The notes beneath the pieces were generated by a model. The model ran no database searches, was not told where the DNA came from, and saw only the letters and a program-made list of their open reading frames with translations. From assembly GCF_003704095.1 (NCBI RefSeq), contig NW_020846178.1, forward strand, positions 62,001 through 126,000: a stretch of 64,000 nucleotides of DNA, read 5' to 3'. The stretch's first letter is position 1. Each line of letters starts with the position of its first letter. The position numbers were made by a program, and so were the translations under genes. Of the stretch, positions 10,961 through 60,318 are shown piece after piece. Source of the DNA: Pocillopora damicornis. Taxonomy: Eukaryota.

Positions 10961-12612
10961 ATGGAGTCCCGTCTCGAGTTTCGATTCGGTATTGATTTAG
11001 TGGAAGCTGCTCTTGCTCAACGCCAGTTCTTGATGCTCGTTGATGATCATTAAAATTTACATGCCGGTCCACACGTTAAAAGGTATGCTTTGTTCCTTTC
11101 ATGGACACTACTGAACGAGGAATTCTCGAGAAGAAGACTAATGGTATACACGCAATATGGTTTTGTGACGAAATATACTACTTTGCTATTTTCCCAGTCC
11201 AGAATTTGATACTCTCGACGAACTTTGCTCAAGACTGAAATTCCCACCAGGGAGGCGTAAAATGATTCAGAAGCTTGTAAATGTAAAGCGAAAGAACTTA
11301 GTGAACAAGTGAGAGAGAGTTAGTTGGTTTCGATCCTCCTTTCATTTTTCGTCCCCGGTTCTGTCTCTCTTGAGTATTCAATCCTAATAGGGCTCTTTTT
11401 ATCTAAAGGCAAAACTTCCCTCGGTTTTTTTCTTTTTTTAATTTTTTGTTCACCCGATTCTCTCTTGGGAAGTCAATCGAGGGCTGTTGTTATCTGAGGA
11501 CAGAAAATTTAATTTTTTTCCTTGAGTCTCTTTTGGCGTGTGTTTTAGAAGCTGTTCCTTAATCACCGAGCATTTCTTCGCGACATCTCAACCATGCTAA
11601 AGAATGAATTGTGATCTTTGGTTGAAGATCATGAAAATTTGAGCGTAATCGATACGCTCTTAGCCTAATATGTACAATTGCTTTTGTAAGGTAAAGCTCA
11701 TCGTGGGTTCATAACAAGCACTCTTGCCTTACCCACTTCTATTTCCTTTAGATATGAACTTCTCTGGTTGCCTTTGCTAGCTCAGTATGTCACTCGTATC
11801 AAGAAATGGTCTATTGCTTTGGGTGTGGCATGTGCACATGCTGTCCCCTGTCGATTACCTGAGAGACTGCAATTAAATTGTCTCTACTCGGTAGGAACAC
11901 AACATAATCCAAGAGCTACGCCAGAAAGGGCTTATAAAGGCCAGGCCCCGTTCGTTCGAAAGTTGGATAACGCTATCCACCGGATAAATTTTTATCGGGG
12001 GTATAGTGCAGTACGTTTTGCTTTCACTTATCTGCTGAATAGCAATGTATCCGTTAAATAGCGTTATCTGCCCTTTGAATAACTAGGCCCAGGGCCCTTT
12101 GGGGAGATCTGGATCCTGAGGAACCTTTCAAAGTTGAACTGACGGCCCCTGTTGATAAGGCACCAGATTTCAAATCGAGAATTGAGTATGACATCGAGGC
12201 TGCTTGTGCTCGACAGAGGGTTTTTAATTATCAGGTGTCCTTACCTCATTTTGCGGATAACAAATTCTTGATCGAAGCATTGGAGAGGTATAAATTACAT
12301 CTTCATCTAAAGCAGTAAAATTCAGAAATGTGTTTTGTACCGTGCTATGACTTTGACCTTATTTAATGGCATATCAGGTTAATCCTGGGTAAAGTATTCG
12401 ATCACAATAATGATTCGATTGAACAACCGACAGCCAGGGTCAAAACTAGGCAAGTAACACGAAAGGAATGGAAAAACCCGGGGCATTAATTTGAACGTAA
12501 TGAAGCCATGTTTCGCAGAGAGCATCCACATGGTTCGCAGAAAGAATCCATTGATTACAGTTTGTATGGAGCTTTTGAGTACACCGTAGACTTGACTATG
12601 TTGGAAGTTGAG
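10961..12612 (+). pseudogene. GRDP-like (DUF1399) copy A, pseudogene; exon 1 10961-11082, exon 2 about 11752-12612, no exon 3
   Basis: ATG GAG TCC CGT... translates MESRLEFRFGIDLVEAALAQRQFL, then in-frame TAA at 11051. GT donor at 11083 and AG acceptor at 11750-11751 match the paralogs. Exon 2 has deletions, stops (e.g. CAG TAA near 12315) and a MITE insertion, and is truncated after TTGGAAGTTGA. Confidence 0.9.
11945..12089. mobile_element. 145-bp MITE with CAG target-site duplication (PIF/Harbinger-like), inserted in exon 2 of copy A
   Basis: Paralogs read AAGGC-CAG-GGCCCT, whereas copy A reads AAGGC-CAG-[element]-CAG-GGCCCT. Imperfect TIRs GCCCCGTTCGTTCGAAAG / CCTTTGAATAACTAGGCC. Confidence 0.85.
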
Positions 12613-15871: not shown

Positions 15872-17070
15872 ATGACGTTCTGTCCCGAGTTTCAATTCGG
15901 TATTGATTTAGTGGAAGCCGCTATTGCTCAACGCCAGTTCCTGCGGATCGTTGATGATTATCCAAGTTTATACGCCGGTCCACACGTTCGAAATGCAATC
16001 AGAAGGTATGCTCTGTTCCTTTCATTGACAGTACTAAACAAGGAATTCTTGAGAAGACTGATCGAATGCAACCAATTGTTTTTATTTCATGAAATCTACT
16101 GCTTTGCTATTTTCTCAGTAACAAAAATCCCTCTTGCCTTAACTATTTCCTTTTCCTTTAGATATGAACTTTTCTGGCTGCCTTTGCTGGCTCAGAATGC
16201 CACTCGTATCAAGAAATGGTTTATTCCTTTGAACGTCGCAGCACCACTTGACATCGCCTGGGTGTTGCATGTGCACATGCTGTCCCCTGTCGATTACCAG
16301 AGGGACTGTAATGAAATTGTCGCCACTTTGGTGGATCATAAAATACTAGTCGGTGAGCAACGTGATAAAGGGCTTGTAAAGGCCAGGGCCCTATGGGAAA
16401 AGGTGTATCCCGAAGAACCTTTTGAAGTAGACCTGGCGGCCCCTGTTTGCGACGCGCCAGATTTCCAATCAAGAATTGAATATGACATCGAGGCTGCTTG
16501 TGCTCGACAGAGGGTTTTTAATTATCAGGTGTCCCTACCTCATTTTGCGGACAAGAGATTTTTGACCGAAGCAGTGAAGAGGTATAAATTGCATCTTTAT
16601 CTGAAGCAAAAAAATCCAGAATTGTTTTTTGTACCGTGCTATGACTTTGACCTTATTTGGCACGCACATCAGCTTAATCCATTAATCTACACACAAGACA
16701 CCACGGAAATCCTAGGTAAAGTATACGATCACAATGATTCAGTGAACGACCGACGGCCAGGCTCACAACTAAGCAAGTCTGAAACAGTAACACGAGAGAA
16801 ATGGAAAAACCTGGGCCAGATATTTGCACTAAATGGAGCCATGTTTCGCGGAGAGCCTCCTCATGGTACGCAGAAAGAATCCATTGATTACAGCTTGCAT
16901 GGAGCATTTGAGTACACCGTGGACTTGACCATGTTGGAAGTTGAAGGTCTCCCAAAATCGAAAACCTACACTGTCAAAATTGAAGATGTCAATGGCTCGC
17001 AAGTGCTAAAGGTGCAAGTTCGTGGACCTGCTGCAAGAGTTACAAAATCTAATGGTGTGTTATCAAGGTT
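15872..17070 (+). CDS. GRDP-like (DUF1399) copy B, 5' part: exon 1 15872-16005, intron 16006-16161, exon 2 16162 to gap at 17071
   Basis: Open frame with PLDIAWVLHVHMLSPVDY and FFVPCYDFDLIWHAHQLNPLIY...HNDSVNDR, the hallmark motifs of plant GRDP1/2-type DUF1399. GT-AG phase-2 intron at the same position in all copies. The 3' end is probably the minus-strand tail at 23095-23427. Confidence 0.85.
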
Positions 17071-17170: not shown

Positions 17171-18124
17171 CAAATATCTGGCCCAGGTTTTTCCATTTCT
17201 CTCGTGTTACTGTTTCAGACTTGCAAAGTTGTGAGCCTGGCCGTCGGTCGTTCACTGAATCATTGTGATTGAATACTTTACCTAGGATTTCCGTGGTGTC
17301 TTGTGTGTAGATTAATGGATTAAGCTGATGTGCGTGCCAAATAAGGTCAAAGTCATAGCACGGTACAAAAAACAATTCTGGATTTTTTTGCTTCAGATAA
17401 AGATGCAATTTATACCTCTTCACTGCTTCGGTCAAAAATCTCTTGTCCGCAAAATGAGGTAAGGACACCTGATAATTAAAATCCCTCTGTCGAGCACAAG
17501 CAGCCTCGATGTCATACTCAATTCTTGATCGGAAATCTGGCACGTCGCAAACAAGGGCTGTCAGGTCTACTTCAAAAGGTTCTTCAGGATACAGCTTTTC
17601 CCATAGGGCCCTGGCCTTTACAAGCCCTTTATACCGTTGCTCACCGACTAGTATTTTATGATCCACCAAAGTGGCGACAATTTCATTACAGTCCCTCTGG
17701 TAACTGACAGGGGACAGCATGTGCACATGCCACACCCAGGCGATGTCAAGTGGTGCTGCGATGTTCAAAGGAATAAACCATTTCTTGATACGAGTGGCAT
17801 TCTGAGCCAGCAAAGGCAGCCAGAAAAGTTCATATCTAAAGGAAAAGAAAATAGTTAAGGCAAGAGGGTTTTTGTTACTGGGAAAATAGCGAAGCAGTAG
17901 ATTTCATGAAATAAAAACAATTGATTGCATTCGATCAGTCTTCTCAAGAATTTCTTGTTTGGTACTGTCAATGAAAGGAACAGAGCATACCTTCTGATTG
18001 CATTTCGAACGTGTGGACCGGCGTATAAACTTGGATAATCATCAACAATCCGCAGGAACTGGAGTTGAGCAATAGCGGCTTCCACTAAATCAATACCGAA
18101 TTGAAACTCGGGACAGAACGTCAT
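17171..18124 (-). CDS. GRDP-like copy C, 5' part: exon 1 18124-17991, intron 17990-17836, exon 2 17835 to gap; probably the same gene as copy D
   Basis: MTFCPEFQFGIDLVEAAIAQLQFL..., canonical splice sites and an open exon 2. Its 17171-17608 segment is the reverse complement of 23528-23965 with one difference that I found. Confidence 0.85.
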
Positions 18125-21100: not shown

Positions 21101-23094
21101 ATTAAATCTCTTTAAATTGTTTATTTGATAATAAACAAGGTGGTACTTTTTGATGTTAGCTCAGGCTGTCAAGGACGCGGTATTCCTTGCTGTGCACCAC
21201 GTGCATGTGAATCATACAAGGTTCGTGCATCATGATCTGACTATAATGACGCGAAAGGAAAAAAACTGACATTTTATTTACTCAACATTTTAGATCATTA
21301 CATTTAATATTTTATCGAAACATTTAACGTAGTGTCGACAATTCGTGACGAAGGGTGAAGTTATAACGACTTTGGATACATTGTTAAGGAGTGTTTCATG
21401 TGTCCATATTCCATACAAGGCAACCCTATTTTTTCTATCAAAAAACTTTGTGTCAGTAATAAAATTAGCAGTTTGAATAGAAGTTATTACAGTCTAACCT
21501 CGATTATCGGGACCTCGTATTATCTGTATTATCCTGGCAAGAAAGTTGGAGCATGCGGCTTCTTACGTATTTAAAAATGTAGCTTGATTTTGTAACAGAA
21601 AATAACCAAATAGTACTGAGACGAAACTATTCAAAAGCGCTGGATGTGAGTCAAATGTCAGATGCTAAGTTACAAGAATGGCTGAATAACAGCATTTGAT
21701 TCTACCTTATCAAGCTAATTATCCTCCAAAATGAGCCAAATCAAATATTTCTTGCTTGAAAGCCTTCGCCAGTCTTTCCACTCGGTATATTGTGGTTGGC
21801 AATCCTCCCATGGACTTCGGTATTTCTTAGAACATTAAGATATTACGTTAGTTCCGCAAAGTTTTAAATTAACATTTCCTTGTAAATGCGTACATTGTTC
21901 TGTTTCTATTGTTTGTTTTGGCCAATCAGCATTGGTTTATACACCTTGAATTCAACTTTGTACTTTGTATAAAACAGAACTTAAGATGACAGAAGAACTG
22001 TCGAAACATGTTTTTTAAAAGTGTCGTATACTTTCCTAAATTCGTTACATATCTACTGCTATCCACATCTATTCACACAACCATCAAATTAACAATGGAG
22101 GGAAGTTTTAACTGAGAAAGAGAAAGAAAACAAGAGAAAGTAAACAAGAACTATTAGAGAGAGTTGCGGAGCCACTTCGAAATACCGGTATCCTCTCGAA
22201 AAAAGAACTTAACTGACATGAATATTAATCCATATCAAATATTTACGAGAAACAATCGATCAGGTTGCCGGGAAGCCTGGAAGGTAAAAACTGAATTATA
22301 TTTGTCCGAGGAAAAAATTATCCCAAGCAACAATTGTGCTATGCTGGCGAAAAATGTAGCCAAAAAATATTTTATCGCGTAAAACTTCGCTAAATAACCG
22401 CAGTCTTCCTCGATTTATTTTCAGCGACAGCGTCAAACATTCGTCTACTGTTATTAACTGATAAAGTAAAGGATAGTAAAACTACATGAAAAACCATGAA
22501 TCGTTAGTGAATAACTAGCAAGAAAAATGTCTTTGTGCTTCTCGAATTAATTTTTTTTCTATCTTTGTGAATCACGACTCTCGATTAAGCGACAAGTTAG
22601 CATAACATCTATCGGGTAACAATCAACTATAAATTACATATTTGTGTGTTCTCTACTTTACCATTAAATCGAGATACAAGTGGATATTTTATGTTACAAC
22701 ATCATATTTTTGCTAATGTCCAGAGAATAACGTTGTATCCAATTAATTAAGTCTTATAAATCTTTGACTTATACATCTAACTTATGAGTACCCTAGAAAC
22801 ACTCGCAAAATCTCGCCGAAATACGGCGAAGTTCCTCAGTAAGTAATTGTGACAGTCCTATTTGGAAATGACGGCACAGAGGTTAAAGAAAATTACTCAA
22901 TACTATGCGCAAACCCAAAGATGCACCAGACTCGGTTTATGCGGGCATGTTCCCTTCTCTAAAGATATTTCTCTTACTTTCAAATTAGAACACAGTTTCA
23001 TGTCAGTGAGGGCAGGTCATAAAAATCTCTCTATTTTCATTTAGTTAGTAAGCAAGCCATAATCCCGTCAGCCACCACAGCCACAACCACAACC

Positions 23095-23427
23095 TCAGCC
23101 ACAGCCACAGCCACAGCCACAGCCACAGCCACAGCCACAGCCACCACATCCACCACAACCTCCACATCCTCCACAACCTCCACATCCTCCACAACCTCCG
23201 CATCCACCACCGCCACCATAGGCATCCCCAAGTTTGTAATTAACATATGCGTAGCTCGGTACAGTGGTGGCATAGAACCCTGCTGCGACTACCAGCGCCA
23301 GGTCTTCACAACGGATTCTGCGAGGTTTGTCTTCCTGGCTTGACGCCATAACTGATGGCTTCGTGTGGTCGGCCATTCTTGTCGAAGTGTTAGGCTGACA
23401 CAGAAGATGAAGGACAGCTATAGAGAA
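23095..23427 (-). CDS. GRDP-like exon 3 C-terminal fragment with Gly/Cys tail (probably the 3' end of copy B)
   Basis: ...[43 protein letters not shown]...GCGCG then TGA, followed by the same 3' flank module as copies D and F. Confidence 0.8.
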   Translation of the reverse strand, partial: FSIAVLHLLCQPNTSTRMADHTKPSVMASSQEDKPRRIRCEDLALVVAAGFYATTVPSYAYVNYKLGDAYGGGGGCGGCGGCGGCGGCGGCGGCGGCGCGCGCGCGCGCG

Positions 23428-23527
23428 NNNNNNNNNNNNNNNNNNNNNNNNNNNNNNNNNNNNNNNNNNNNNNNNNNNNNNNNNNNNNNNNNNNNNNNNN
23501 NNNNNNNNNNNNNNNNNNNNNNNNNNN

Positions 23528-26360
23528 CCCTATGGGAAAAGCTGTATCCTGAAGAACCTTTTGAAGTAGACCTGACAGCCCTTGTTTGCGACGTGCCAGA
23601 TTTCCGATCAAGAATTGAGTATGACATCGAGGCTGCTTGTGCTCGACAGAGGGATTTTAATTATCAGGTGTCCTTACCTCATTTTGCGGACAAGAGATTT
23701 TTGACCGAAGCAGTGAAGAGGTATAAATTGCATCTTTATCTGAAGCAAAAAAATCCAGAATTGTTTTTTGTACCGTGCTATGACTTTGACCTTATTTGGC
23801 ACACACATCAGCTTAATCCATTAATCTACACACAAGACACCACGGAAATCCTAGGTAAAGTATTCAATCACAATGATTCAGTGAACGACCGACGGCCAGG
23901 CTCACAACTTTGCAAGTCTGAAACAGTAACACGAGAGAAATGGAAAAACCTGGGCCAGATATTTGCACTAAATGGAGCCATGTTTCGCGGAGAGCCTCCT
24001 CTTGGTACGCAGAAAGAATCCATTGATTACAGTTTGCACGGAGCATTTGACCTCACCGTAGATTTAACCATGTTGGAAGTTGAAGGTCTCCCAAAATCGA
24101 AAACCTACACTGTCAAAATTGAAGATGTCAATGGCTCGCAAGTGCTTAAGGTGCAAGTTCGTGGACCTGCTGCAAGAGTTACAAAATCTAATGGTGTGTT
24201 ATCAAGGTTTTCATACAAAAAGAATAGCGGAAATTTGAGGGTAAGTGTTCTTATACAATTTTTTTTCTTTAATGTTTTTATTTCCATCAGGGCTTGAAAC
24301 TAGCTTTTTAATGAATTAGTGACATAATTGACACACCTGAAGGTTTTGTATAAACGAATAATAATAGGTAGTCGTATCTAGCCACAAGTCATATTACAAT
24401 CATAGGCTTTCCGCGGTGAGTAATCTTACTGAGGGTTGCCGAATTACTGAGAACATTAAGATTCATTAATGAAAAATTATACGAAATAATATCGTGATCA
24501 GGAAGTGGCGAGCAGGTCCATTATAATTTGACATGTGAGACATGGAAAAATCACAAGAAATAGTAACAAGCAGTTTTAGTGGTTTCATTATGGATTTTGT
24601 TTTTGTTAATCACTCACTGATTGCTTCAGATACGGTCAATCATTTTCCGCGGAAGAATGTGATCAAAAGTAAGGAAAAAGGCGAACAGTTTGCACTAAGT
24701 TACACGATAAGACGTGTTACTTATGAGCAAACTCTAGTTTGTAGGTGGATATTTTCAACTTGGAAAGATTTTTGTTGGGCGATGGAAAAGAAGAATGATT
24801 TGAGCGTAGAAGTAACAATCCTGGAAAGGAGTGTTTTCGTCAACCTATGAATACTACGACTTTTCCCTCAATTGAAATCTGATTATCACCGAACCTTAAG
24901 TCACAGTCACGGACAAAAATCTTTCCACGAACAACTCCTGCCTAAAATACTTCATCACATCTAATAAAACGTGCATTTTTTTTGGTTTACTTTGTTAGGT
25001 TCGTATTCAGCAACATGGGACTTGCTCTTGCTTTTCACATTTACTAGATGAGTCTGCAGAGTATTACTATGAGTCTGCAGAGTATTACTTCTCAGCCGTA
25101 TTCGGGGCCTTGGGAGTCTCCTACAAAAGTAACGTGGTGCCTCAACCGGAAACGCACGAGTTAACCATTGCTGGAAACTTGATTGTTCGGTTTACCACTG
25201 TGGTGCATCCACCTCAGCCAGATGAATACATTTTCACAGTAATGCCAAATGGGGATTTCAGCCCAGTCCGAGATGCTGCTTCCATTTTGAGCTCACCAGC
25301 ACTGTTCCTTTCGCCTTGTTCTTTGAACCAAACCCTGGCTTCTAGTGAAATGTCAATGCATCGGCTACTGGATTATAGGGGACGAGAAGCGTTTACCTGC
25401 CGAGTGATGCACTCCGCTGAGTTGCTGTTCTCCTCCATAGAGGTCATGAACCACGTCGATGAGGTTGTTAGCACCGCGCACCTTCTACGCGGAAATGTCC
25501 TTCCGACGAAGGAGCAAGTCGGCAAGCCTAGTTTTTGTTGCACTTTGAATGAGGCGGGAGGGGTAAGAGCCATATTGATTAGAGGTTGCAAAGACTGGGG
25601 CATCTGCATTGGCAAATGGAAAGGAGCTGTAAAGGGTGTCCCTGGTGTACCTGGAATAAAAGGGTCTGAAGGTAGTCCAGGTGTTAAAGGAACGCCTGGT
25701 GTGAAGGGCCAACCGGGTGATTTGTGCATCAAGTTCTTCTCATTGTCCGAAGCACAAGAGTGGAAAAGAGTGAAGAAACGGGGAGAAACCTTCAGGGTAA
25801 GTCTTAGCAAAAAAGAGATAGTCAACGTAAACCTTCGGACTGGAGTGATCTCTTTTCCATCCGCAGTAAGTGCCGTACCAGAAAGCATTGCACTGGGATT
25901 CTCTATAGCTGTCCTTCATCTTCTGTGTCAGCCTAACACTTCGACAAGAATGACCGATCACACGAAGCCATCAGTTATGGCTTCAAGCCAGATAGACAAA
26001 CCTCGCAGAATCCGTTGCGAAGACCTGGCGCTGGTAGTCGCAGCAGGGTTTTATGCCACCACTGTACCGAGCAACGCATATGTTAAGCACAAACTTGGGG
26101 ATGCTTGTGGAGGCGGAGGTTGTGGAGGATGCGGAGGTTGTGGAGGATGTGGAGGTTGTGGAGGATGCAGTAGCTGTGGTGGATGTGCTGGAAGAGGTGG
26201 ATGTGCTGGAAGAGGTGGATGTGGTGGAAGTGGTGGATGTGGTGGAAGTGGTGGATGTGGTGGAAGTGGTGGATGTGGTGGATTTGGTGGAAGTGGTGGT
26301 AGTGGTGGAAGTGGTGGATGTGGTGGATGTGGTGGCTGTGGCTGTGGCTGTGGGGATTAA
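23528..26360 (+). CDS. GRDP-like copy D, 3' part: exon 2 to 24240, intron 24241-24998, exon 3 24999-26360; about 811 aa when joined with copy C
   Basis: Open exon 2 ending SGNLR|GTAAGT. Acceptor TTTGTTAG|GTTCGT opens a 453-codon exon 3 containing a 21-bp internal tandem duplication (near 25049-25090), a collagen-like insert (25635-25718) and a Gly/Cys tail (26106-26357). Confidence 0.85.
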
Positions 26361-27105: not shown

Positions 27106-28214
27106 GCGAACGACGAGGCGCTCTATCCTAATCGATTCGGGGTCAAAAACAGTTTCCAGTTCCTTTCATATTTGTTCTTAGAACATGTAAAATTTATAAA
27201 GAAAATGAGCCATTGAAAGTCAATGCAGAGACATTAGAAAAACAAATTAAAGAGATTTTACTAAGCTCCCTGATATCTGAGTAATGACTTCGAATTAAAA
27301 CTGAACAATCCGTCTTCAAACATCTCATGGGGCACACTTCATGGCCTTCTCTGTATCGTTCAACTCTTACTAGTCATTGGCATTGCGTGGTGTTTACGAT
27401 AAATCATTAGAAAGCGGAAAATTATACTTTGTCTATGTTCAGCTATTTGTACTCTACAGTAAAAGTATTTTACATAACCTGTAAACGCAGCCATTTTTCA
27501 AGTTTTTCCGTTGTTGATTTGAAGATTGCGAAAAAATTGTGCAAAACAGGAGTTTGAAGGTTTTGGGAATTCGAAAATTGAGCAAAACAAGAGGTCATTA
27601 TCTCAGTCAGTTTACGTATCCGTTAGAGCTGAGTCATGCATTAAGTGACTTGAGTGGGTGGGAAACAACGACAATTATCGAGGGGTCTTTTGTAAAGCTA
27701 CATCTGTCACTCGACAAAAGACCTCCATATGCTACAAACTACAAAAGAATTAATGTTTGATTTTATGGCTGACTAGTTTTTCATATACTTCGAGTTTCTC
27801 GTCTCAGGAGAGATATTTTCATAGTTAGAACATATTTTGGTCTTTCAGGTCTTTGGTCTTTCTGCAAACGAAAAGGAGATTCACATTTTTAAAGAAGATA
27901 AGAGCTCTCAGTCGAGTAAAGGGCAGTATTAAAAACAAATTCCAATTTTCATACGATATTGGTCTTGTGACATCATGTACTTTTGCGAATTATCAAGCCA
28001 TTGTAGTGGAGGTCGAAAGAGTGATTTCGGAAATCTAAGGCGCTTAAAGCAAACTTAGAACATTTATTGAGGGTAAAGCTGTCATTTTCTTCTCAAGTTG
28101 TTTCAGGAATAGCTAGACAACGTCACTTTAAGACCAGCACACTTTGTATCAGCCATGTGTTTTGGTGCAGAAAAAAACACACTGTATCAACGTGTCCACA
28201 CCTCCATATCGAGT

Positions 28215-28697
28215 AAGTGCACAAAAAATAACAGTAATCTTTGTCGTACTGAGAAGCAACGCCCGAAGTGTACAAAAAACAGGAGTATTCCTCGTGCTAA
28301 AAGCACCGCGTGAAGTGCACAAGCAACAAAAGTATTCCTCGTTCTAAAAGCATTCCGTGAAGTGTACAAACAACAAGAGTATTCCCAGCTCTAAAAGCAC
28401 CGCGTTAAGTGCACAAAAAACAGTGCACAAATAACAAGAGTATTCCTCATTCAAAAAGCACTGCGTGAAGTGCACAAACAATAACAGTAATCTTTGTTGT
28501 ACTGAAAAGCAACGCGTGAAGTGTACAAAAAACAAGAGTATTCCTCGTTCTAAAAGTACCGTTTGAAGTGCACAAACAACAACAGTAATCTTCACTCTAC
28601 TGAAAGGCAACGCGCGAAGTGCACAAACAACGAAAGTGTTCCTCGTTCTAAAAGCAATGCGTGAAGTGCACAAACAACAAGTCTATTCCTCTTGTAC
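28215..28697. repeat. Minisatellite of about 10 units with 47-bp (A) and 51-bp (B) subtypes
   Basis: Units start AAGTGYACAAA. Type A continues CAACAAGAGTATTCCTCGTTCTAAAAGCACCGCGTG; type B continues CAATAACAGTAATCTTTGTTGTACTGAAAAGCAACGCGTG. Confidence 0.9.
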
Positions 28698-29410
28698 GAA
28701 TCGACGGATAAGGTTCTGGTGAATCGGCAAGATCGAGTCACGCAATTGCAAAGGTGACGTAGGAATACATGCAAAGATCTACGGTGCCTCCTTTCCAAGC
28801 CACGTCGATAGCGAGTGGTTAAAGCTCGACAGAAAAAAGTTACTGGCAGTTGATTGTGGGAAGCCTGGATTATTTGCAGAAAAAAAACTATGGTGCAGCT
28901 CAGTGCAATCTAAATTTGGATGGTAACGTTTGTCTTTTTATTGCCATCAGTTACTGTTTTAACGCTGGTTTTTCTTACAGACTTAATTCATGTATTTACC
29001 GCGTGAAATCAGGTTGAACATCGAGTCAGTTAAGTTTCTTGCTACGAAGATATTTAAAAAATGTCTCCATAAAGCACCTATAAGTATGCTTCTCATGCAA
29101 AATGATACTGGTTTGACCAAAGCATCTTGATCATGACTTCATCTGTCACCTAAATTTGCGAAAAATTTTACTGCGGCTGCATCATAATGCTCTGCATCTC
29201 TGAGTGATTGTTCGCTGGTTGAATAATTTGAATAATTCAAAATAGTTTTCCCCTTTTTTTCTAAGGTCTCCTTTTAGAATGAACTATTTTACAAGTTCTT
29301 GACTTGTGATTGCTCTAATTTTCATGTATATCATACATTTATATCTTTAGACGACGTAACCTTAGCTTTTTTTTCATTTTCTCCCTTTTTAGTAATCCTT
29401 CAAATAAGCC

Positions 29411-32400
29411 ATGACGTTCTGTCCGGAGTTTTGATTCGGTATTGATTTAGTGGAAGCCGCTCTTGCCCAACGCCAGTTCCTACGAATCGTTGATGGTTAT
29501 CCAAGTTTATACGCCGGTCCACACGTTCGAAATGCAATCAGAAGGTATGCTCTGTTCCTTTCATTGACAGTACCAAACAAGGAATATTCTTGAGAAGACT
29601 GATCGAATGCAATCAATTGTTTTTATTTCATGAAATCTACTGCTTTGCTATTTTCCCAGTTACAAGAAGCACTCTTCCCTTAACCATTTCCTTTTCCTTT
29701 AGATATGAACTTTTGTGGCTGCCTTTGCTGGCTCAGTATACCACTCGTACAAAGAAATGGTTCATTGCTTTGAACATTGCAGCACCACTTGACATCGCCT
29801 GGGTGTGGCATGTGCACATGCTGTCCCCTGTCAGTTACCAGAGGGACTGTAATGAAATTGTCGCCACTTTGGTGGATCATAAATTACTAGCTGGTGAGCA
29901 ACGTGACAAAGGACTTTTAAAGGCCAGGGCCCTATGGGAAAAGCTGTATCCTGAAGAACCTTTTAAAGTAGACCTGACGGCCCCTGTTTACGACGCGCCA
30001 GATTTCCAATCAAGAATTGAGTATGACATCGAGGCTGCTTGTGCTCGACAGAGGGTTTTTAATTATCAGTCGTCCCTACCTCATTTCGCGGATAGGAAAT
30101 TATTGACTGAAGCAGTGGAGAGGTATAAATTTCATCTTTATCTCAAGCAGCAAAATCCAGAATTGTTTTTTGTACCGAGCTATGACTTTGACCCTATTTG
30201 GCACTCACATCAACTTAATCCGTCAATCTATACAAGAGACACCACAGAAATCCTGGGTGAAGTATACAATCACAATGATTCGGTGAACGACCGAAAGCCA
30301 GGCTCACAACTTATCAAGGCTGAAACAGTAACACGAGAGAAATGGAAAGAGCTGGGTCATCAATTTGCACTTAATGGAGCCATGTTTCGCGGAGAGCCTC
30401 TTGGTACGCAGAAAGAATCCATTGATTACAGTTTGCATGCAGCATTTGAGTACACCGTAGACTTGACCACGTTGGAAGTTGAAGGTCTCCCAAAATCGAA
30501 AACCTACACTGTCGAAATTGATCTTGTCAATGGCTCGCAAGTGTTAAAGGAGCAAGTTCGTGGACCTGCTGCAAGAGTTACAAAATCTTATGGTGCGTCA
30601 TCAAGGTTTACATATAAAAAGAAGAGTAGCGGGAATTTGAGGGTAAGCGTTCTTGTACAAATTTTCTTCTTCGAAAGTTTTTATTTCCATTAGGGCTTGA
30701 AACTAGCTTTTTAATGAATTAGTGACATAATTGACTCACCTGAAAGTTTTGTACTAACTAATATTGATAGGTAGTCGTATCTAGCCACAAAGTCATATTA
30801 CAATCATAGGCTTTCCGCGGTGAGTAATCTTACTGTTGCCGAGTCAATAATATTAGATATCCACCAGATTAATATATTTGAAGCTGACCAAAAGAGGGTT
30901 GCCGAATTTCTGAGAACATAAGGATTCATTTATGAACAATTATATGAAATAATATCGCGATAAGTAAATAGCGAGCAGGTCCATAATGATTTACGTGTGA
31001 GCCATGGGGAAATCACAAGAAATAGTGAAAAACAATTTTAATCGTTCTATTATCGAGTTTGGTTTTGTTAATCACTCACTGATCGCTTCAGAAATGGTAA
31101 ATCATTTTCCGCGAAAGAATGTGGCCAAAAGTAAGCATGAAGGCGAATAGTTTGCACCAAGTTACACATTAAGACGTATTACTTATGAGCAAACTCTAGT
31201 TACTAGGTGGATGTTTTTAACTTTGAAAGTTGCTGAGTGTAGAAGTGGCAGTCCTGGAAAGGACTGTTTTCGTCAACTTATGAGTACTAACGACTTTTTC
31301 CGTAATTGAAATCTGGTTATCACCGAGCCTTAAGTCACAGTCACGGACGAATATTCAGCAACGTGGAACTTCCTCTTGCTTTTCACATTTACTATACAAG
31401 TCTGTAGAGTATTACTTATCAGACGAATATCTGGCCCCGAGAGTCCCTTACAAGAGTAACGTGGTGCCTCAACCGAAAACGCACGAGTTAACCATCGATA
31501 AAAACCTGATTGTTCGGTTTACTACAGTGGTACATCCACTTCAGCTAGACGAATACATTTTCACAGTAATACCAAAGAGGAATATCAGCCCAGTCCAAGA
31601 TGCTGCTTCCATTTTGAGCTCACCAGCACTGTTCCTTTCGCCTTGTTCTTTGAACCAAACCCTGGCTTCTAGTGAAATTTCAATGCATCCGCTACTGGAC
31701 TGTTGGGGACGAAAAGCGTTTACCTGCCGAGTGATGCACTCCGCTGAGTTGCTGTTCTCCTCCGTAGAGGTCATGAACCACGTCCATGAGGTTGTTAGCA
31801 CCGCGCACCTTCTACGCAAAAATGTCCCTCCGACGAAAAAGCAAGTCAACCAGCCCCAGTTTTGTTGCACTTTGGATGTGGCGGGAGGGGAAAGAGCCAT
31901 GTTGATTAGAGGGTGCAAAGACTGGGGCATCTGCATTGGCAAATGGAAAGGAGTTGCGAAGGGTGTTCCTGGCGTACCTGGAATAGGAGGGTCTGAAGGT
32001 AGTCCAGGTGTTAAAGGAACGCCTGGCGTGAAGGGCCAACCAGGTTATTTGTGCATCGAGTTCTTCTCAATGTCCGGAGCACAAGAGTGGAAAAGAGTGA
32101 ATAAAAATGAAGAAAACTTCAGGGTAAGTCTCAGCGAAAAAGAGAAAGTCTACGTTAACCTTCGCACTGGAGTGATCTCTTTTACACATGCAGTAAGTGC
32201 CGTACCAGAAAGCATTGTACTGGGATTCTCTATAGCTGTCCTTCATCTTCTGTGTCAGCCTAACACTTCGAAAAGAATGATCGACCACACAGAGCCATCA
32301 GTTATGGTGTCAAGCCAGAAAGACAAACCTCGTAGAATCCGCTGTGAAGACCTAGCGCTGATAGTCGCGGCAGGGTTCTATGCAACCACTATACCGAGCA

Positions 32401-32428
32401 ACGCATACATTAAGCACGAACTTGGGGT
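29411..32428 (+). pseudogene. GRDP-like copy E, pseudogene; exon 1 29411-29544, exon 2 29703-30642, exon 3 about 31351 to gap
   Basis: Codon 8 is TGA (29432-29434) where paralogs have CAA/CGA. The 3' end of intron 2 including the AG acceptor is deleted (TCACGGAC joins directly to GAATATTCAGCAA near 31348). Exons 2 and 3 are otherwise open. Confidence 0.85.
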
Positions 32429-50784: not shown

Positions 50785-53424
50785 TTAAATACAGTTCTAA
50801 AAAAATGATACAATAAAAATACCTAAAAGGTTCGGTAGTTAAGTTCTCTTCATCTTCCCAACTTGTTTAAAACCCGCTACACTCTTTCCATTTCACCATA
50901 TAATGAACCTGAAGATTGTAATTATTAAACTTGACAAACATTGACAAACATTGTAAACCAAGGCAGGCGAATTGTGAACTCACCGTGCCATGTGATGTCC
51001 TTTTCGAGATTAGCATTTCCACGGCAAAATAGTTAGGAGATACATTAGCTTTTATTTTTTTTTTTTTGTATCTTAAAGAAGGTCCGCTGAAGAAATACTA
51101 TGCATTTGGAGAAATAAACCGCGGCTATTCTCGCTTGTACACCTTCCAGGGCTCGTCATTTCGTAATCTGATGCAATTACGCATGCGTAGCAGGAATTTT
51201 TTCTTTTCTTCTTCTTCTTTTTCTTTTTTTTTTATTGCAGATATGACCACCCGTTTCAAACCGCTGACTGTCTCGGATTTCTGGTCATCCCCGATTGTTT
51301 GAGTTTATTTATGGCTGTCTTGGTTTTTTTTATGTACTTTGAGGTTCTCGTCTCCGGAGAGCTTTTCTCAGTTACAATATAATTTTGTCTTTCAATTGAT
51401 TCATTCTGGAAACGGGAAGGAGAGTTACATTTTAAAGGAGGTAAGTGCTCTCAATCGACATACTTTTGCGAATTGTCAAGCCATCGTAGCGGAATTCGGT
51501 AGAGTGATTTCGGAAATCTGAGGCGCTTAAAGCAAACTAAGAACACATTTTGAGGGTAAAGCTATCACATTCTCCTCAAGTTGTTTCAGGAATAGCCAGA
51601 CGTCACTTTTAGAGCGGCTCACTTTTTTGTATTAGCCATGTGTTTTGGTGCAGAAAAAAACACACTGTATCAACGTGAGCACACCTCCATATGGAGTAAC
51701 TCGTTACAGAGAGAGTCAGAGCTGATAATCAGTGGAAAGGCTAAGATTTTCTTTTAGGAAACTAGAGTCAGTTTAAGAACAATAATTTCGGTATGAAGAC
51801 GTGTTCCCTTTTTTTCTTTCCCTTGCTGTTATGAAATCTGATAATATCGATGCAATTAAGTTAAAACTCCCCGCTGACCGTTCAGCACCGTTCAGGATGA
51901 GAGACTGATTGCGTTAGTTAAGTTGCTGCTCATGGGGTTATTTTGGAGGGATTCTAGATATTCTGAAGCTCTTGGTGACATGTTTCTCAGGAAAAATATC
52001 AGGTTTGACCATAGCATCTTCACTGATGCTACATCTCCCATCTCTGTTCAAGAAACTCGTGTGGCTATCTTAGAGTAGTTTGAACCTGTGGGTGATTGTT
52101 CCGTCGAGTCGCGTACTTGGAATTTTAAACTTCTCGATTGGTCAATTCAAAAGGATTAGGGAGGAAGCCCTTTCTAATAAAGTAGGTGTAAACGATGGAA
52201 ATATAATCTTAATGATGAAGCAGAAGGCTCTAGTGAATCGAAAAGATCGAATCACGCTGCAATTGCGATGGTGACTAGGAATACATGCAGTGATCTACAG
52301 TGCTTCTTCTCCAAGCCACTTCGATAGCGAGTGGTTAAAGCTTGACCAGAAGAAAGCCACTCGGAGTTGATTGTCGAAAGGCCTGGATTATTTGTAGACA
52401 AAAACTATGACGCAGCTTACTGCAATCTAAATTTGGACGGGGAAACGTTTGTCTTTTTATCGCCATCAGTTACTGTTTTGACACCGATGTTTCTTGGAAA
52501 CTTAAATCATGTACCTACTGCTTAAGTCAGCTAAGTTTCTTGTTGCAAAGCTATTTCCAAAATGTTTTCAGACTCTCCAATGCACTCATAAGAGATTTTT
52601 ATGGCCTGCCCTCACTGACATGAAACTGTGTTATAATATGAAAGTAAGAGAAATATCTTTAAGGAAGGGAACATGCCCGCATGAATCGAGTCTGGTGCAT
52701 CTCTGGGTTTGCGCAAAGTACTGAATAATTTTCTTTAACCTCCAAATAGGACTGTCACAATTATTTACCGAAGAACATTCGCCGTATTTGAGCAAAATTT
52801 GCGAGTGTTTCAAGGATACTCATCACTTAGGTACGTAAGTCTGTAAGACTTAAAACTAAATGCACCTATGCACATTTTTAAATTAAAGATTCGAAGTCAG
52901 TTTCTCCCAAGTTTAAAATGTTTCATTTAATTAGATACAACGTTATTTTCTTGACACTAGCAGAAAAAAAGGTGTAGTTACATAAAATATCCACTTGTAT
53001 CTCGATTTAATGGTAAAGTAGAGAACAAGCAATTATTTAATTTATAGTTGATGGTTACTCAGCGGATGTTATGCTAACTTGTCGGTTAATGAGAAGTCAT
53101 GATTTACTAAGATAGAAAAAATAATAACTCGAGAAGCACAAAGACATTTTTCTTACTTGTTATTCACTAACGATTCAAGGTTTTACATTTAGTTTTACTA
53201 TTCTTTACTTTATCAATTAATAACAGTAGATGAATGTCGCTGAAAATAAACCGAGGAAGACTGAGATTGTTTGGCGAGGTTTTATGCGATGAAATATTTT
53301 TTGGTTATAATTTTCGCCGGCAGAGCACAATTGTTGCTTGGGATAATTTGTTTCTCTGACAAAATAATTTTTGCATTTGAAATAGCTTCACTTCAGAGAG
53401 CAATGATTGTGTAGGGTAACGTGG

Positions 53425-53982
53425 TTCGGCTCAACATCGATTAAGTGGAGGCGTACCATGCCCACCGCCAGTTCTTACAGATTGTTGATGATCGTCCAAA
53501 TTTATATGCAGGTCCACACGTTCAAATTGTTATCAGGAGGTATGCTTACAAGGAACTAAAAATTGAGTTCATGGTTTTTTTTCTCAAGAAATCTACATCT
53601 ATACTAATTAAATCTTACTCTTTAAACTAATTCTGATCTAGAGCGGCTCACACGCGAAATGAGCGCCTGTCGACTTATTTCTTCAAGATATGAGCTGTTC
53701 TGGCTGCCATTGCTTGCTCAGTCTACTATTACTGCAGAAATTGAAATGCGACTGGATGTAGCCTGGGTATGGCAAGTGCACATGCTGTCACCTGTCAGTT
53801 ACAAAAGGGACTGTAATGAATTTTGTCGCAACTTTGGTGAATCATAAAATATTGGTCGCTGAGCAACGTCAGAACGGGCTTGTAAAGGCCTGGGCCCTAT
53901 GGGAAGAACTGTATCCTGGGGAACCTTTTGAAGGTGACCTGACGGGCCTGGAAACAGTGTTCCTGATTTTAGGTCAAGAATT
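53425..53982 (+). pseudogene. GRDP-like copy G, truncated pseudogene of the H subtype
   Basis: EAYHAHRQFLQIVDDRPNLYAGPHVQIVIRR|GT (donor 53540), then exon 2 from 53688 YELFWLPLLAQSTITAEIEMRLDVAWVWQVHMLSPVSY. It has frameshifts, ends near 53982, and lacks the 8-aa insert found in copies B-F. Confidence 0.85.
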
Positions 53983-55591
53983 CAGGTTCCCTTAATTTTG
54001 TGTCAGTTTACACCGTCTGCATTTTGGGAAATTTTGTGACACAGCTTCTTCAAATAAACCTTCAGCAAAAAGTTTTCACTACCTCATTTTCCATCTGTTT
54101 GTTTCCTTCCCCATGGATCAACCTTCAGCATAAAGCACCCTTCATCTTTTTCCACACCCATTATTTTTTTCACATTTTCTTTAAAGCTCGGGCTTCACTG
54201 CATATTTTGTTATGCAGCATTTGCATTATGTCACAATAAATTATATCGAGTTACCGGTACATTTCAAAGACTTCTCAGCCAATAACCGAAGAAAACGAAA
54301 TGGAGTGGGAACTAACTTGTGTCTCGCATGGCCCACATGATGATTCGCACGACTCACTGGCTCGCAACTTGTCAAGACTCTTGAGCTTCTACCTCCGAGA
54401 AAGGGGAATTTCTTTTCAGAAGGCGAGGGTTTGCGGGCGATAAGTTCGGTGGGTAAGAAGTTTTAACTTTTTCATCTCTCACCGTTACACTTTCAACATT
54501 CTATAGAGATGTAAAATTTCCGTTTTTGCCGATTGTTGAAATCGACCTGATTTTCGCAACGTTGAAGTCACGAAGACAATTCAATATTTTTTGGTTTCTC
54601 TGACGTGCTTATTGTGAAATTTGTCAAATATCTCTGACGAAATCTTTTGAGATGTGTAGGATGGATCTGTCACCTTTGCGCAGCAATCTTGTACGGCCAG
54701 AAGTATTTAGTTATACCTTAAGTTCGATTCTCCCGATAAATTTTTCATTATCCTTGTCTGCACGGCTAATATCGCGTATCACGAAGTATTTTACCTTCGA
54801 GACGATTATCCAAATATTATTAACATGTATGAATTGCAATTATTCAAATGGCTATTTAATCGATAAAGTTTTACGCAGTCATATCAAACAGCCGCTCTCA
54901 ATCAAGTTAAGGATGTGCATTGGTAACGCGAGTCCAACTAGACTAAGTTCACGTATGCAAATATCTCCGTATCATTATTGAAATCATTAGCAGTTAATCC
55001 GTCCAGTATAAAGTCTTGGGAGATCCGGAGCAATATAGACTTAAGATATTTTGTTTATTTAGAGAAAAGATTGCTTTTTTTTTTTTACCATTTTAATGAT
55101 TTTCCTTAAGAGTGAAGCGTTTTGATTCAACCGCTATTTATAATGTACCCTCGAAATTTGTGGCGCAGATGTTTTGAGATGCATAACATTCATTAAAGTG
55201 ATAAATGAGCCACAATAATGCACTTCTGTAATAAATAGAGACTGGCGTTACATTGCATCTGTCTCTGCTTCTACCACCGCAGGAAGATCCTAAAGAAAAA
55301 AATTTGAGTTTTTTCGGGAATGAAAATAGTAAACTACAGCAATCCGGTAAGGATATCGTAAGTTTGCTTTCTGACACACTATGGAGGATAATAACTTCAA
55401 TAAACAAATAGTTAGCAAAAAATTCGAGGAGTCAGTAGAGTAGGACATATTTAACGGAAATCAAGACAGAACGAATAAATTACTTTATGTTACAAAGTGT
55501 AATATTTTAATCGCAAGTGATTAATGAGTTTAAAAATTTGATTTTTTTTCACTACCACCAGAGACGTGATTCAATGCAAATGTAAATCGAC

Positions 55592-58500
55592 ATGTCACGC
55601 GGCAAGATTAGACTCAGCATTGACTTGGTGGAAGCGGCCGTTGCCCACCGCCAATTCTTACAGCTTGTTGATGATCATCCAAGTCTATATGCTGGTTCAC
55701 ACGTTCAAAACGCAATCAGAAGGTAGGTTTGGTTCAACTGTACTGTTGATCAATCGTTTTAAATATTTAGGAGTAAGGCCCGTGGGGATCGAAATAGAAA
55801 GCCACACTGTTTCATTTTTCAACTGTTCAAATTTGTTTGACAGCACGTCACGAAAACAGTTTTAACGAACAATCAGGGGCACAATTTTAAATGCAGAAAG
55901 TTTCATTTAATTTCAACGTCCCGAATATAACTGATAGATTTTTATCATTACTTTCACTAAAGCATATATATCGTAAAAGTTCGGTTAATTAAAGTTCGGC
56001 CCGAGAATAAGTCTGTTACATGTAGAGTGCGACTTTTAAAGCGGCCGGTCAGAGTCATTTAGTTTCTGTCAGATGTGAACTGAACTAAGTGAAGAGGCTG
56101 AGAAATCAGAGGGTGGAAAGTTAAAGTGTAGGCTCACTAAATAGCGAGAGACAAAATGAGAATAATAAAATCAAAGAGTTCAATGTATCAAGAAATGGTC
56201 TGTTGTTCCAGCTCAACTTCTCACATTAAGTATTAAACAATAGTCCTTTTGCTCTTTGTAGCACTGAGGGACTTCGGCCGAAGCGGCGCGAAAAGGTTCG
56301 TGAGTAATCGGAAAAAAATTTTCGGTGCATTTTTAACCTCTCTCAGCGTACCTTTTTTTATCGGACAGTCTTTTATCATGCTCGTGATAAACAAATCGGA
56401 CTTCGGCTGCGCGGTCGTCCGATTTTGTTATCACTCGTATGATTACAGACCGAAGTGGACTCCACTCAGTCCTATTGCCATTATTTATTATTATTGTCCT
56501 GAAATGTTACGGTATTGGGCACCCATAGTATCCTCCTAGCCATGGAGTGTATCCAGTCCTAACGGTCAGATTACAAGAAAGCCTTTGACTTAACTTTAAA
56601 CTGATTTTAACTATTTTTAACTTTTTTTCCTTTTTTTTTTATTAGGTATGAACTTTTCTGGCTGCCTTTGCTCGCTTATTCTACGACCTCAGAAATTGCG
56701 GCACCACTCGACATCGCGTGGGTTTGGCACGTGCACATGCTGTCACCCGTCAATTATGAAAGGGACTGCAACGAAATTGCCTCTACTCTGCTAGATCACA
56801 AGATCCTAGTTGGAGAACAGCGTCAGAAAGGGCTTATTACGGCCAAAGCTCTGTGGGAGAAGTCGTATCCCAGCGAGCCTTTTGAAGTTGACCTGACGGC
56901 CCCTGCTAACAATGCGCCAGGTTTCAAGTCAAGAATTGAGTATGACATCGCAGCTGCCTGTACTCGACAGAGAGTATTTTATTATCAGGTGTCCTTACCT
57001 CACTTTGAAGATAAGAAATTCATGACTAAAGCAATGGAGAGATATACATGGCATCTCATGCTCAAGAGAGATAACCCAGAAATGTTTCTTGTGCCTTGCT
57101 ACGACTTTGATCTCATTTGGCATGCGCATCAGGTAAATCCACTGCTATACAAAAAAGACACCACGGAGATACTGGGTAAAGTACTCAAACATGATGATTC
57201 AGTGAACGACCGTCAGCCTGGCTCAAAGCTCAACTTGTCTGAAGAAATAACCCGCGAAAAATGGAAAAACCTGGGTCAAGAATTTGCAGTGAATGGAGCC
57301 ATGTTCCGTGGAGAGCCTCCTCTTGGAACTAACACACTGGCAGGGCCCATTGACTACACTTGGCTGGCAGCACTCGAGTACACTGTAGATTTGACCAAAT
57401 TGGAAGTTGAAGGTCTCCCTAAACCGAAAGCGTACACTATTGAAATTGATGTCATGAATGGTGAGCGGGTCCTTAAGAGACAGATTCGCGGGCCAAATGC
57501 CACACTTTCCGAATCCACCAATGCCTTATCAACGTTTACGTTTAAAACGAAGAATAGCAGTAATCTGAAGGTAAGAGTGTTAATGCTTTAATAATTTATC
57601 TTCTATGATTCAGAGTTATTTATCAGTTGTCTCCTTCTCGTCTGATTTATTATGGTAATTACACTGAGTGCAATTTGGTCTGAAATCATCAACGCGATTT
57701 GAAATCAAAAGTATGATTTCAAGCCAAAATTGCACGACACGAAATTCGATTACACTTTATTACACCTATTTTGAAATCGGAAAACTCGTTCGCTTAATGC
57801 AGTTTTTAGTTTGTAAAAATATTTTATTGAGCTGGTTTGTAAAAAGATGCAAAAGTTGTCTCTCATTTCCCTGCAATTTGAATGATTTCTTTAAACAAGT
57901 TTGAAATTGATTGGTTGTTGTGTTTTGGTAAAGGTGTCTCATTGGCTGGGACAAAGATACGATTAAGAGCATAAAATGGTAAAATAAATCGCGCCGGTGA
58001 GAGCCAATCGGATTGCAAGGATCACATGTGATTCACGCGCAACAATAAAGTGGCTGAGACATGAACACCAAGCCCAGTGAGATGAAATCTTGTTTAGTTG
58101 AATCAGTTTCGGGTAGTTAAGTAACGGTGGTAGGTGAAAAGGGTGATGATGATCAGGGAGACCACTGGTTTGCGGAATCGTCAATTGTACACCACTGGGA
58201 TTTTGTGGAAGTGATATTTCATAGGATTAATAAGTCGCTACCGGCAAAAGAAACATTATTTGGTTCAAAACCATCATTAACTTTGTATTTATTTTATCAG
58301 GTTCGCATTTATCAACCAAGAACATACTCTTGCTTTACACATTCACTTGACGAGTCTGACCAGTACCTGTTTGTAAACCATCTGGTCGGCAAAGTTCCTT
58401 ACCAAAGTACCGCCAAGCCTGAGCCAGAAACGCACGACTTAACTGTGGCTGAGAACTTCAATGTTCGGTTTACTACTGTAGTTCATCCCCCCAAACTAGA

Positions 58501-59539
58501 TGGATACTATTTTACCGTGAGACCAAAGAGAAATTTCAGCCAAGTCCAATATCCCGGTCAGATATTAAGCTCGCCGACGCTCTTCCTTTCGCCAGCTTCT
58601 TTAGCTTCCCCATCGGCACCTTGCGAAATGTCGCTCCATCGGGTACTTGACAGTGAGCTTCGACAGGCGTTTACCTGCCGAGTGGTGCACTCAGCTTTGT
58701 TGGTGTTCTCTTCCGTGGAGGTTATCAACCAATCTGGTTGCGTTGTTAGTACGGCTCACTTACTATGGGGTAGCATACTTCCTACGAAAGAACAGGTGAG
58801 CAAGCCACAAAAATGTTGCACTTTGGATGAGAACGCAGGAGAAAGAGCAATGCTTATTAGAGGAAGCAAAGACTGGGGAGTCTGCATCGGAAAATGGGAA
58901 GGGTTTGTCAAGGGTGTCCCTGGCGTGCCTGGAATAAAAGGGCAGCCAAATAAACCAGGTGTAAAAGGAAAACCTGGCGTGAGAGGCCAACCTGGACATT
59001 TGTCCATTAAATTCTTCTCACTGTCCGGAACTAAAGAGTGGAAAGAGGTAGAAAAGCAGGGAGATCAGTTCTGGGTAAGTCTTAGCAAAAAGATGAAGCT
59101 CAGCATCGATTTGCGCACAGGCTTGATTTCGTTTCCTTCTGAAGTACATCACGTGCCAGAGGTAATTGCACTCGGATTTTCAATTGCCATTCTTCATCTT
59201 TTATGCCAGCCTTACACTCCAGTCGGAAGTACAGATTATTCAAAACCATCAGTTTGTGCATCAGGACAGGCCGACAAACCAGGCGGAATTCATAATGAAG
59301 ACCTTGCATTAATAGTGGCAGCCGGGTACTATGCCAACACTGTACCAACTAACTCATACCTAAAGTATGCGATAGGAGGAGGTGCCTGCGGTGGATGTGG
59401 TGGATGCGGTGGCTGTGGTGGCTGCGGTGGATGTGGTGGTTGCGGTGGATGTGGTAGCTGTGGAGGATGCGGTGGTAGCTGTGGAGGATGCGGTGGTTGC
59501 GGTGGTTGCGGCGGTGGCTGCGGTGGCTGCGGAGGATAA
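55592..59539 (+). CDS. GRDP-like (DUF1399) copy H, intact; exons 55592-55722, 56646-57570, 58301-59539; 764 aa
   Basis: MSRGKIRLSIDLVEAAVAHRQFLQLVDDHPSLY... with GT-AG introns of phase 2 and 0 that keep frame (131+925+1239 nt). Both WHxH motifs are intact. Collagen-like insert at 58913-58996, tail with 16 Cys at 59375-59536, stop TAA. Confidence 0.92.
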
Positions 59540-60318
59540 TTGACTGAGATGATGCTATAAATATTCATTGTAACAAAACATTAATGATCTGAGACATTTA
59601 AGTCATTTAAATAATCTGACTGCATTTTATTTCCGCAATTACGAGATAGAAACTTGCAGAAAACACGCAGAGTATAGGCAAGATCACTTGTAACTTAAAG
59701 ACACTAGTAAGAAACGGCAGAAGTTTGTGTAATCAAAAACCTTTTCGATTTTAAAGGTCTCGTATAGATTTATCACGAACAGTTTCTCACTTCCTTGCTG
59801 TGTCATAAAATACTAATTCCGATTAACCCCGAACCGTAAGGTTCGGTTTGTTTTCCCAGTAAGTACGCTCTTTCAGCATGTCACAGAACGTTTTACATTA
59901 AACTGTAAAATAACAAAATAATGGAAATAATATTTGCTGTAAAGGCCTGTGGCAAAATTCTTTGTATTTACCCCAATCGATTGCTTTCCAGAATCTACTC
60001 CAAAGATATATGTTATTTTTGACGATATCCAACGATTTCGAAACGATTGTAACTTAACAGATCCTATTGATCAAAATTTAGCTGTTTAGCTGCCACAGAG
60101 ACAATTCGCGCTGACGAAGGGCTAACGCTCGAAACGTGAGCTTTGAACAAATTTTCATCAGAGGAGATTTTTCCGGATCCATAATTGTTACCGAATTCAT
60201 CAATTTTAGGGTTATCGTATTCATTGACGTTTACGTTGGTTACAAGGCTGTTTCCTGCCTTAATCGATAACAACAAAATTCTTCCTAAGTAAAAAGGGCT
60301 AGAGTCGATCAAGATACA

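Follow-up and report, generated by a model that had tools for sequence, protein, structure and literature searches.

A spliced GRDP gene of the coral Pocillopora damicornis with a candidate metal-binding triad and a glycine/cysteine tail

The gene and its family

We analyzed a 64,000-nucleotide stretch of the Pocillopora damicornis genome (hereafter the window; RefSeq GCF_003704095.1, contig NW_020846178.1, positions 62,001 to 126,000 of the forward strand) carrying a gene for a 764-residue protein of the GRDP/DUF1399 family, along with about eight other copies or fragments (about nine in all), several of them broken or cut by assembly gaps. The open frame is built from three exons joined across GT-AG introns (Table 1), and shifting the splice junctions by one base gives an identical spliced sequence. 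RNA evidence came from poly(A) RNA contigs of four runs from four studies, one of the runs being labelled coral metagenome. A single contig (X3/13, covering 55561-55723, 56647-57568 and 58299-59918) spans the whole gene with its tail; intron 2 was spliced out in all four runs, and intron 1 was bridged by one contig in each. The gene, which an earlier note on this DNA had described as an intact 764-residue gene, is real, spliced and expressed. Taken alone, it is an unremarkable member of a family that is known but still unexplained, and its interest lies at the family level. Two intronic segments (56356-56491 and 57688-57900) are deeply covered by short unrelated RNA contigs and are interspersed repeats.

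Exon 2 matches PF07173 (GRDP/DUF1399) in two stretches, with 143 bits against a curated cut-off of 22.7 (E 1e-41), which confirms the family assignment first made from the letters, and a C-terminal Gly-rich region with interspersed Cys, a GRDP feature, is also present. The N-terminus has no hydrophobic stretch: of all 19-residue windows, the ten with the highest hydrophobicity lie at residues 476-484 and 634-640; this agrees with the claimed lack of a signal peptide, as judged without a dedicated predictor. A search for longer relatives returned 118 proteins, which belong to corals, amphioxus, molluscs, annelids, crustaceans and nematodes, and a profile library search contributed the best 150 of 1369 clusters at E<=0.001; the eukaryotic residue and tail counts given below rest on 253 proteins collected from both searches. 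Giant-virus proteins, one of them named glycine-rich domain-containing, were returned from a viral library. In an Atlas search, all clusters under 0.9 for the N-terminal part were PF07173, and the predicted barrel described below gave none; sequence searches of the PDB yielded weak or Gly-linker matches only.

The family is old and occurs in plants, bacteria and many invertebrates. In Hydra, GRDP-like is listed among the enriched domains, with 9 and 7 copies (PMC7642931). The literature searched, with most subscription papers outside it, contained no metal or enzyme assignment for GRDPs, no study of an animal member and no characterization of the bacterial single-domain proteins (PF27765) considered next.

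The D/H/H triad and the Gly/Cys tail

Twin histidine motifs had been claimed for this protein. The quoted motifs are present, beginning at residues 64, 194 and 226, and the internal repeat scores 93, compared with a mean of 27 and a maximum of 43 in 300 shuffles. The two repeats are nonetheless unequal, with Ala68 in repeat 1 versus Asp199 in repeat 2. Among eukaryotic homologs, D/E-H-H was found in repeat 2 of 221/253 proteins versus repeat 1 of 55/218 (96/218 if His is allowed for Asp). Because repeat 1 has no such Asp here and shows D/E-H-H in far fewer homologs than repeat 2, the twin reading is weakened; partial degeneration of repeat 1 is likely.

Bacterial single-domain proteins align with repeat 2 (probability 96%, E 1.6e-9). 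We examined 15 bacterial loci of a plasmid collection, chosen from 6 + 48 matches; they were found by similarity to this same motif and include two pairs that each come from a single genus. All 15 carry D/H/H at positions 199, 203 and 226, while position 205 is His in 10/15 and position 197 is Asp in 2/15, so that the set kept across kingdoms is D199/H203/H226. Conservation of these Asp and His residues extends from eukaryotic to bacterial homologs. Within a bacterial metagenome-assembled genome, a 3.9-kb contig also carries an animal-like GRDP gene (L002); the gene was excluded from the counts as probable contamination. In eukaryotes, D66 (219/219), H74 (220/220) and H205 (252/253) are near-invariant, and some paralogs show decay of D199, H203 and H226; in counts uncorrected for kinship, loss of H226 accompanies loss of D199 and loss of H203. 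Such conservation across the family is what is looked for in a 2-His-1-carboxylate site. In the exon 2 model, D199 and H203 are spaced i, i+4 on a predicted helix. From this spacing and the conservation pattern, we infer a putative metal site, D199/H203/H226, in repeat 2; His74 and His205 are likely structural.

These patterns bear on whether the protein is a scaffold only, that is, a membrane adaptor with structural His and Asp residues and a tail serving as a low-complexity interaction or disulfide module. His74 and His205 persist in proteins with a decayed triad, unrelated proteins also contain GGC runs, and plant members have partners: cotton GRDP1 binds RHM1 and activates it (PMC13001069), and rice GRDP1 binds an aspartic protease (PMC12069192). 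Set against this are the retention of the triad in all 15 bacterial homologs, among which position 205 varies, and the joint loss of H226 with its two partners in eukaryotes, and we regard a pure scaffold as quite unlikely.

The tail of the coral protein has 16 Cys, as first described; the GGC triplets said to hold them contain 13, and the other three lie in one GAC and two GSC. It is not a plain microsatellite, with 6 different 9-mers among 13 GGC units versus only two Gly-to-Ser changes; since the GGC units were selected by translation, the information lies solely in the contrast with the two Ser. In one RNA run, 9 nt (one triplet) of the tail are missing. The C(GGC)3 pattern occurs outside the paralog array on one contig of the genome alone (C2122), within a cluster of Gly-rich proteins, which weighs against a private role. 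This Gly/Tyr/Cys-rich cluster (C2122:79000-153000; L018, L021, L028, L031, L033-L036) has GGC/GGY blocks alternating with basic spacers that end in KR or RR, and two of its members have a hydrophobic N-terminus; four scanned members gave no Pfam match over cut-off, and one member was found in RNA. The proteins look like secreted, processed structural proteins. As candidate in-trans substrates they were rejected because they are apparently secreted, whereas the GRDP has no signal peptide.

A second proposal of the earlier note was that the tail is a metallothionein-like or Fe-S array of CxxC ligands. Metallothioneins are small stand-alone proteins with conserved Cys number and spacing. The present tail belongs to a 764-residue protein; the 69 triad-intact homologs have between 0 and 14 Cys in the tail, the two closest having 4, and spacing varies from x1 to x5 among the array paralogs, where a fixed Cys motif in orthologs would mark an Fe-S array. 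Because neither number nor spacing is conserved, the proposal is weakened as a family function. A looser form of it is that tail thiolates collect Zn, Cu or Fe-S and exchange metal with the D/H/H site, making the protein a membrane-bound buffer or sensor with no covalent change. The 13 overlapping CxxC pairs, the dominance of x2 spacing in 3/4 array tails and the rise of the Arabidopsis GRDP2 transcript under iron deficiency (bioRxiv 10.64898/2026.05.20.726447) are in its favor, and the pairing of domain and tail is as compatible with it as with covalent modification. The variable Cys number, the missing triplet and the bacterial repeats with single Cys about 10 residues apart speak against it, and metal handling alone seems to us rather doubtful.

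Among the 15 bacterial loci, a Cys tail was found in cis in 11 and an adjacent small Cys-peptide gene in 2, which strengthens the earlier analogy with an in-cis substrate. For the relatives of one betaproteobacterial homolog (120 listed of 558), all 120 have 2-14 tail Cys, preceded by Ala at two residues before (840/846) and by Trp, Phe or Tyr at one before (840/846), in near-identical AAWC repeats (x2-14). Other bacterial homologs have GGC-type tails after membrane helices, and a cyanobacterial protein combines a GRDP-like domain, TIGR04222 and a (GGGC)n tail in one chain. CxxC is not the conserved unit of these tails; that unit is a Cys preceded by small residues within a flexible arm. Some loci have tailoring neighbors, namely S-adenosylmethionine (SAM) methyltransferases (L005, L007), a TauD dioxygenase (L007) and a glycosyltransferase (L017); other neighbors are only regulators or unknowns. 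Two compact cassettes were noted, one with domain, repeat Cys peptide and methyltransferase (L005:2869-4392) and one with tailed domain, methyltransferase and TauD dioxygenase (L007:2851-4870).

Repeated bacterial cores and adjoining tailoring genes would also suit a folded leader or a self-cleaving peptidase, with the tail modified in trans or just cut off and released, and TIGR04222 tails have been proposed as substrates of separate multinuclear nonheme iron-dependent oxidative (MNIO) enzymes (PMC12452194). Yet in L005 and L009 tail-less domains stand beside separate peptide genes, an arrangement more in keeping with a trans-acting protein than with a leader, and no conserved cleavage motif was noticed before the animal tails. 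We consider this the least probable of the readings discussed here.

Across eukaryotes, the association of tail and triad was assessed in 96 proteins with a C-terminal segment, after 157/253 that are partial or too divergent there were dropped. At least three small-small-Cys motifs were found in the tails of 45/69 triad-intact versus 1/27 triad-less proteins; Fisher p-values for this table were set aside as inflated by kinship. A divergent intronless copy of 683 codons elsewhere in the genome (contig C3979; L001:4462-6510), lacking His72 and His203, likewise has no tail; its likely ortholog is P0079, which was added to the 96 proteins in a FastTree tree that gave long-branch warnings. From these comparisons, animal lineages that lose the triad appear mostly to lose multi-Cys tails too. 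A single terminal Cys after a Gly run was seen in 13/27 triad-less versus 3/69 triad-intact proteins, and a triad-less clade shows it (P0045, P0058, P0067, P0077, P0080-P0082, P0084, P0092, P0095, P0097, P0098 and P0042).

Predicted folds, related systems and paralogs

Alignment-based models were made of exon 2 (predicted local distance difference test, pLDDT, 85) and of a full-length homolog, P0002, which is 48% identical over 695 residues (pLDDT 89, predicted template modelling score 0.90). Both show two helical repeats followed by beta domains. The beta-rich middle noted previously was borne out, and the identity of its folds had been missed: structural matches to the P0002 model include C2 domains (best Z 11.2, root-mean-square deviation 2.7, 118 aligned), Tubby 1i7e (Z 8.9, 3.6, 142 aligned) and the At5g01750 barrel 2q4m (Z 8.7, 3.6, 143/162 aligned), so the middle region is predicted to comprise two lipid-binding folds. 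The barrel matches come from a whole-protein search with the homolog model, the domain not having been folded alone, and the likeness to Tubby/LURP-one/scramblase barrels and C2 domains is one of predicted fold only, at 6-16% identity. A search with the His domain gave a best Z of 3.2 and no Foldseek match at E<=0.001, which shows neither a new fold nor the absence of a relative. A complex prediction without alignments for the P0002 N-terminal domain, its C-terminal 47 residues and two Zn scored 0.23 and 0.19 against a mark of 0.34; it gave no answer and is not used as evidence.

A Gly-x-x/Pro/Lys-rich loop in the predicted barrel (residues 553-586; 58901-59002) is common to paralogs and distant animals and has a weak Collagen match in one homolog. 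The EDL-AAGY-PTN segment was found in 96/253 homologs, many of the rest being partial. A coral homolog (P0057) has an N-terminal PLAT/LH2 domain, a further lipid-binding module.

The protein is predicted to dock on membranes. The reported localization of rice GRDP1 to cytoplasm and plasma membrane (PMC12069192) and of cotton GRDP1 to the cytoplasm with an ER (endoplasmic reticulum) marker (PMC13001069) fits this prediction; neither this work, with its binding partners, nor the paralog array figured in the earlier note. These locations and the predicted lipid-binding folds, with the single terminal Cys kept in nearly half of the triad-less proteins, are consistent with a lipid anchor, in which host enzymes would S-acylate the tail Cys in trans, adding to C2/Tubby-like membrane binding, and the D/H/H site would serve another substrate. 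Scramblases have Cys-rich palmitoylated motifs. Host acylation does not explain why bacteria have the same pairing of domain and tail, split peptide genes included, and an anchor of this kind is unlikely.

Plant GRDP1 and GRDP2 are laid out as PF07173, PF25334 (C2_GRDP), PF25335 (GRDP_C) and a Gly/Cys tail. Like them, the coral protein has tandem PF07173 repeats with the same motifs, a similar length, a predicted C2-like domain next and a Gly tail with Cys (PMC4299439). Unlike them, it has a near-regular GGC tail and a tandem family expansion in its genome, and PF25334 and PF25335 do not score on P0002 or on exon 3. The PF25334 model matches a plant-type protein and not P0002 or the window exons, although a C2 fold is predicted in P0002; where PF25335 would lie, the predicted barrel occupies the same place. 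The bacterial PF27765 proteins share homology to repeat 2, the same D/H/H positions and a Cys tail in cis or adjacent, and differ in having one repeat, a tail right after the domain or after membrane helices, and often aromatic-Cys cores with tailoring neighbors. TIGR04222 membrane proteins also have an unstructured Gly/Ser tail with Cys, as the earlier note had correctly stated, but their tails are placed in the periplasm and the putative MNIO enzyme in trans (PMC12452194). The 764-residue protein gave no TIGR04222 match in an NCBIfam scan, and it has no membrane helices, its one strongly hydrophobic helix lying in the predicted barrel.

A borosin has an N-terminal SAM alpha-N-methyltransferase domain, and a BURP cyclase has a BURP domain with Cys-His motifs. 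The likeness here is one of working only: an enzyme domain fused to a putative core, repeated cores, and split forms in relatives. No Pfam match to the borosin methyltransferase domain was found on the exons or homologs; the BURP domain gave no Pfam match either, and the 764-residue protein has no CH dipeptide.

Concerning the other copies in the window (Table 1), the readable tails of three paralogs have 16-19 Cys with differing spacing. Position 227 is Asn in all five paralogs with a readable exon 2 and Asp in the 764-residue gene. Gaps of 100 N (17071-17170 and 23428-23527) separate inverted paralog pieces that face each other, and assembly may have inflated the copy number. RNA on the paralogs at 23530-32420 consists of short pieces only and gives no basis for a conclusion on their expression.

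Table 1. Features of the 764-residue GRDP gene and of its paralogs in the window
Feature	Position	Strand	Description	Basis
Exon 1	55592..55722	+	residues 1-44; initial helices of GRDP repeat 1	frame, RNA
Exon 2	56646..57570	+	residues 44-352; two His motifs and first half of C2-like domain	frame, PF07173, RNA
Exon 3	58301..59539	+	residues 353-764 and stop; remaining C2-like domain, barrel, EDL segment, tail	frame, RNA
Repeat 1 motif	56710..56799	+	D66, A68, H72, H74, C85, H95; no Asp equivalent to D199	
Repeat 2 motif	57103..57198	+	D197, D199, H203, H205, H226, D227, D228	
C2-like beta-sandwich (predicted)	57373..58495	+	residues about 287-417, across intron 2	mapped from P0002 model
Tubby/LURP-like beta-barrel with hydrophobic helix (predicted)	58505..59206	+	residues about 421-654	
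EDL-AAGY-PTN segment	59297..59359	+	residues 685-705, directly before tail	ordered in P0002 model, pLDDT blocks 78 and 93
Gly/Cys tail	59372..59536	+	16 Cys	low-confidence in P0002 model
Broken paralog	10967..12612	+	stops, frameshifts	
Paralog exons 1-2	15887..17065	+	ends in assembly gap	
Inverted paralog exons 1-2	17172..18109	-	ends in same gap as 15887..17065 copy; may be assembly duplicate	
Inverted paralog end	23065..23427	-	GGC/GC tail, in-frame stop, adjoins gap	
Paralog exons 2-3	23530..26360	+	19-Cys tail with mixed spacing	
Three-exon paralog	29441..32426	+	tail inside gap	
Paralog with damaged exon 2	39619..42826	+	stop and frameshifts in exon 2; open exon 3, 16-Cys tail	
Decayed paralog fragment	53424..53944	+	immediately upstream of the 764-residue gene	

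A possible action of the domain on its own tail

Our best single guess, and a tentative one, is that GRDP is a membrane-docked protein in which a metal held by repeat 2 acts successively on the Cys residues of the protein's own flexible tail. The predicted C2-like and Tubby-like domains would hold the protein at the cytosolic face of a membrane, repeat 2 would bind one metal ion via Asp199, His203 and His226, and tail thiolates would be captured at this metal and covalently modified one by one. The lipid-binding folds and the disordered tail of this scheme are model predictions, and metal binding, thiolate capture and covalent change are inferred. Isopenicillin N synthase (IPNS) and ETHE1 are thiolate-binding enzymes with Fe(II)/O2 chemistry at a 2-His-1-Asp site; by analogy with them, Fe(II)/O2 oxidation would be the likeliest chemistry, followed by Zn-activated S-alkylation.

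Several observations weigh against action of the domain on its own tail. About 440 residues separate the repeat domain from the tail, which is below pLDDT 50 in the full-length P0002 model, and the 64-kb window showed no tailoring gene. Plant GRDPs are reported to act via partners (PMC13001069, PMC12069192). The tail-triad association comprises only 6 independent contrasts, of which 3.4 go the same way, 0.0 the opposite way at the three-motif threshold and 2.6 show no difference (median p 0.25, not significant), and 19/28 degenerate rows in the tree form one clade. Moreover, 24/69 triad-intact proteins have fewer than three motifs, some of them being truncated gene models, and 2/15 bacterial loci have neither tail nor peptide. 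The animal GGC tail is unlike the aromatic-Cys cores of the bacterial repeats, and GGC runs are also found in unrelated, apparently secreted Gly-rich proteins of the same genome.

A broader proposal, which we hold to be doubtful, is that GRDP/PF27765 is an undescribed cysteine-modifying metalloenzyme fold. Animal and plant GRDPs would then be membrane-docked self-modifiers, the eukaryote-wide survivor of a bacterial system resembling those of peptides that are made on ribosomes and modified after translation (RiPPs), and their GGC tails would become a modified metal-chelating or signalling arm.

In crops, the GRDP family influences seed size, cell death and tolerance of stress, and the literature searched assigns it no biochemistry. 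The analysis narrows the candidate metal site to one triad and adds predicted membrane docking, so that a vague "glycine-rich protein" is replaced by three residues, one tail and two predicted lipid-binding domains as targets. If the tail is modified in cis, GRDPs would represent a new class of peptide-modifying enzyme and an animal case in which enzyme and core are fused in one protein.

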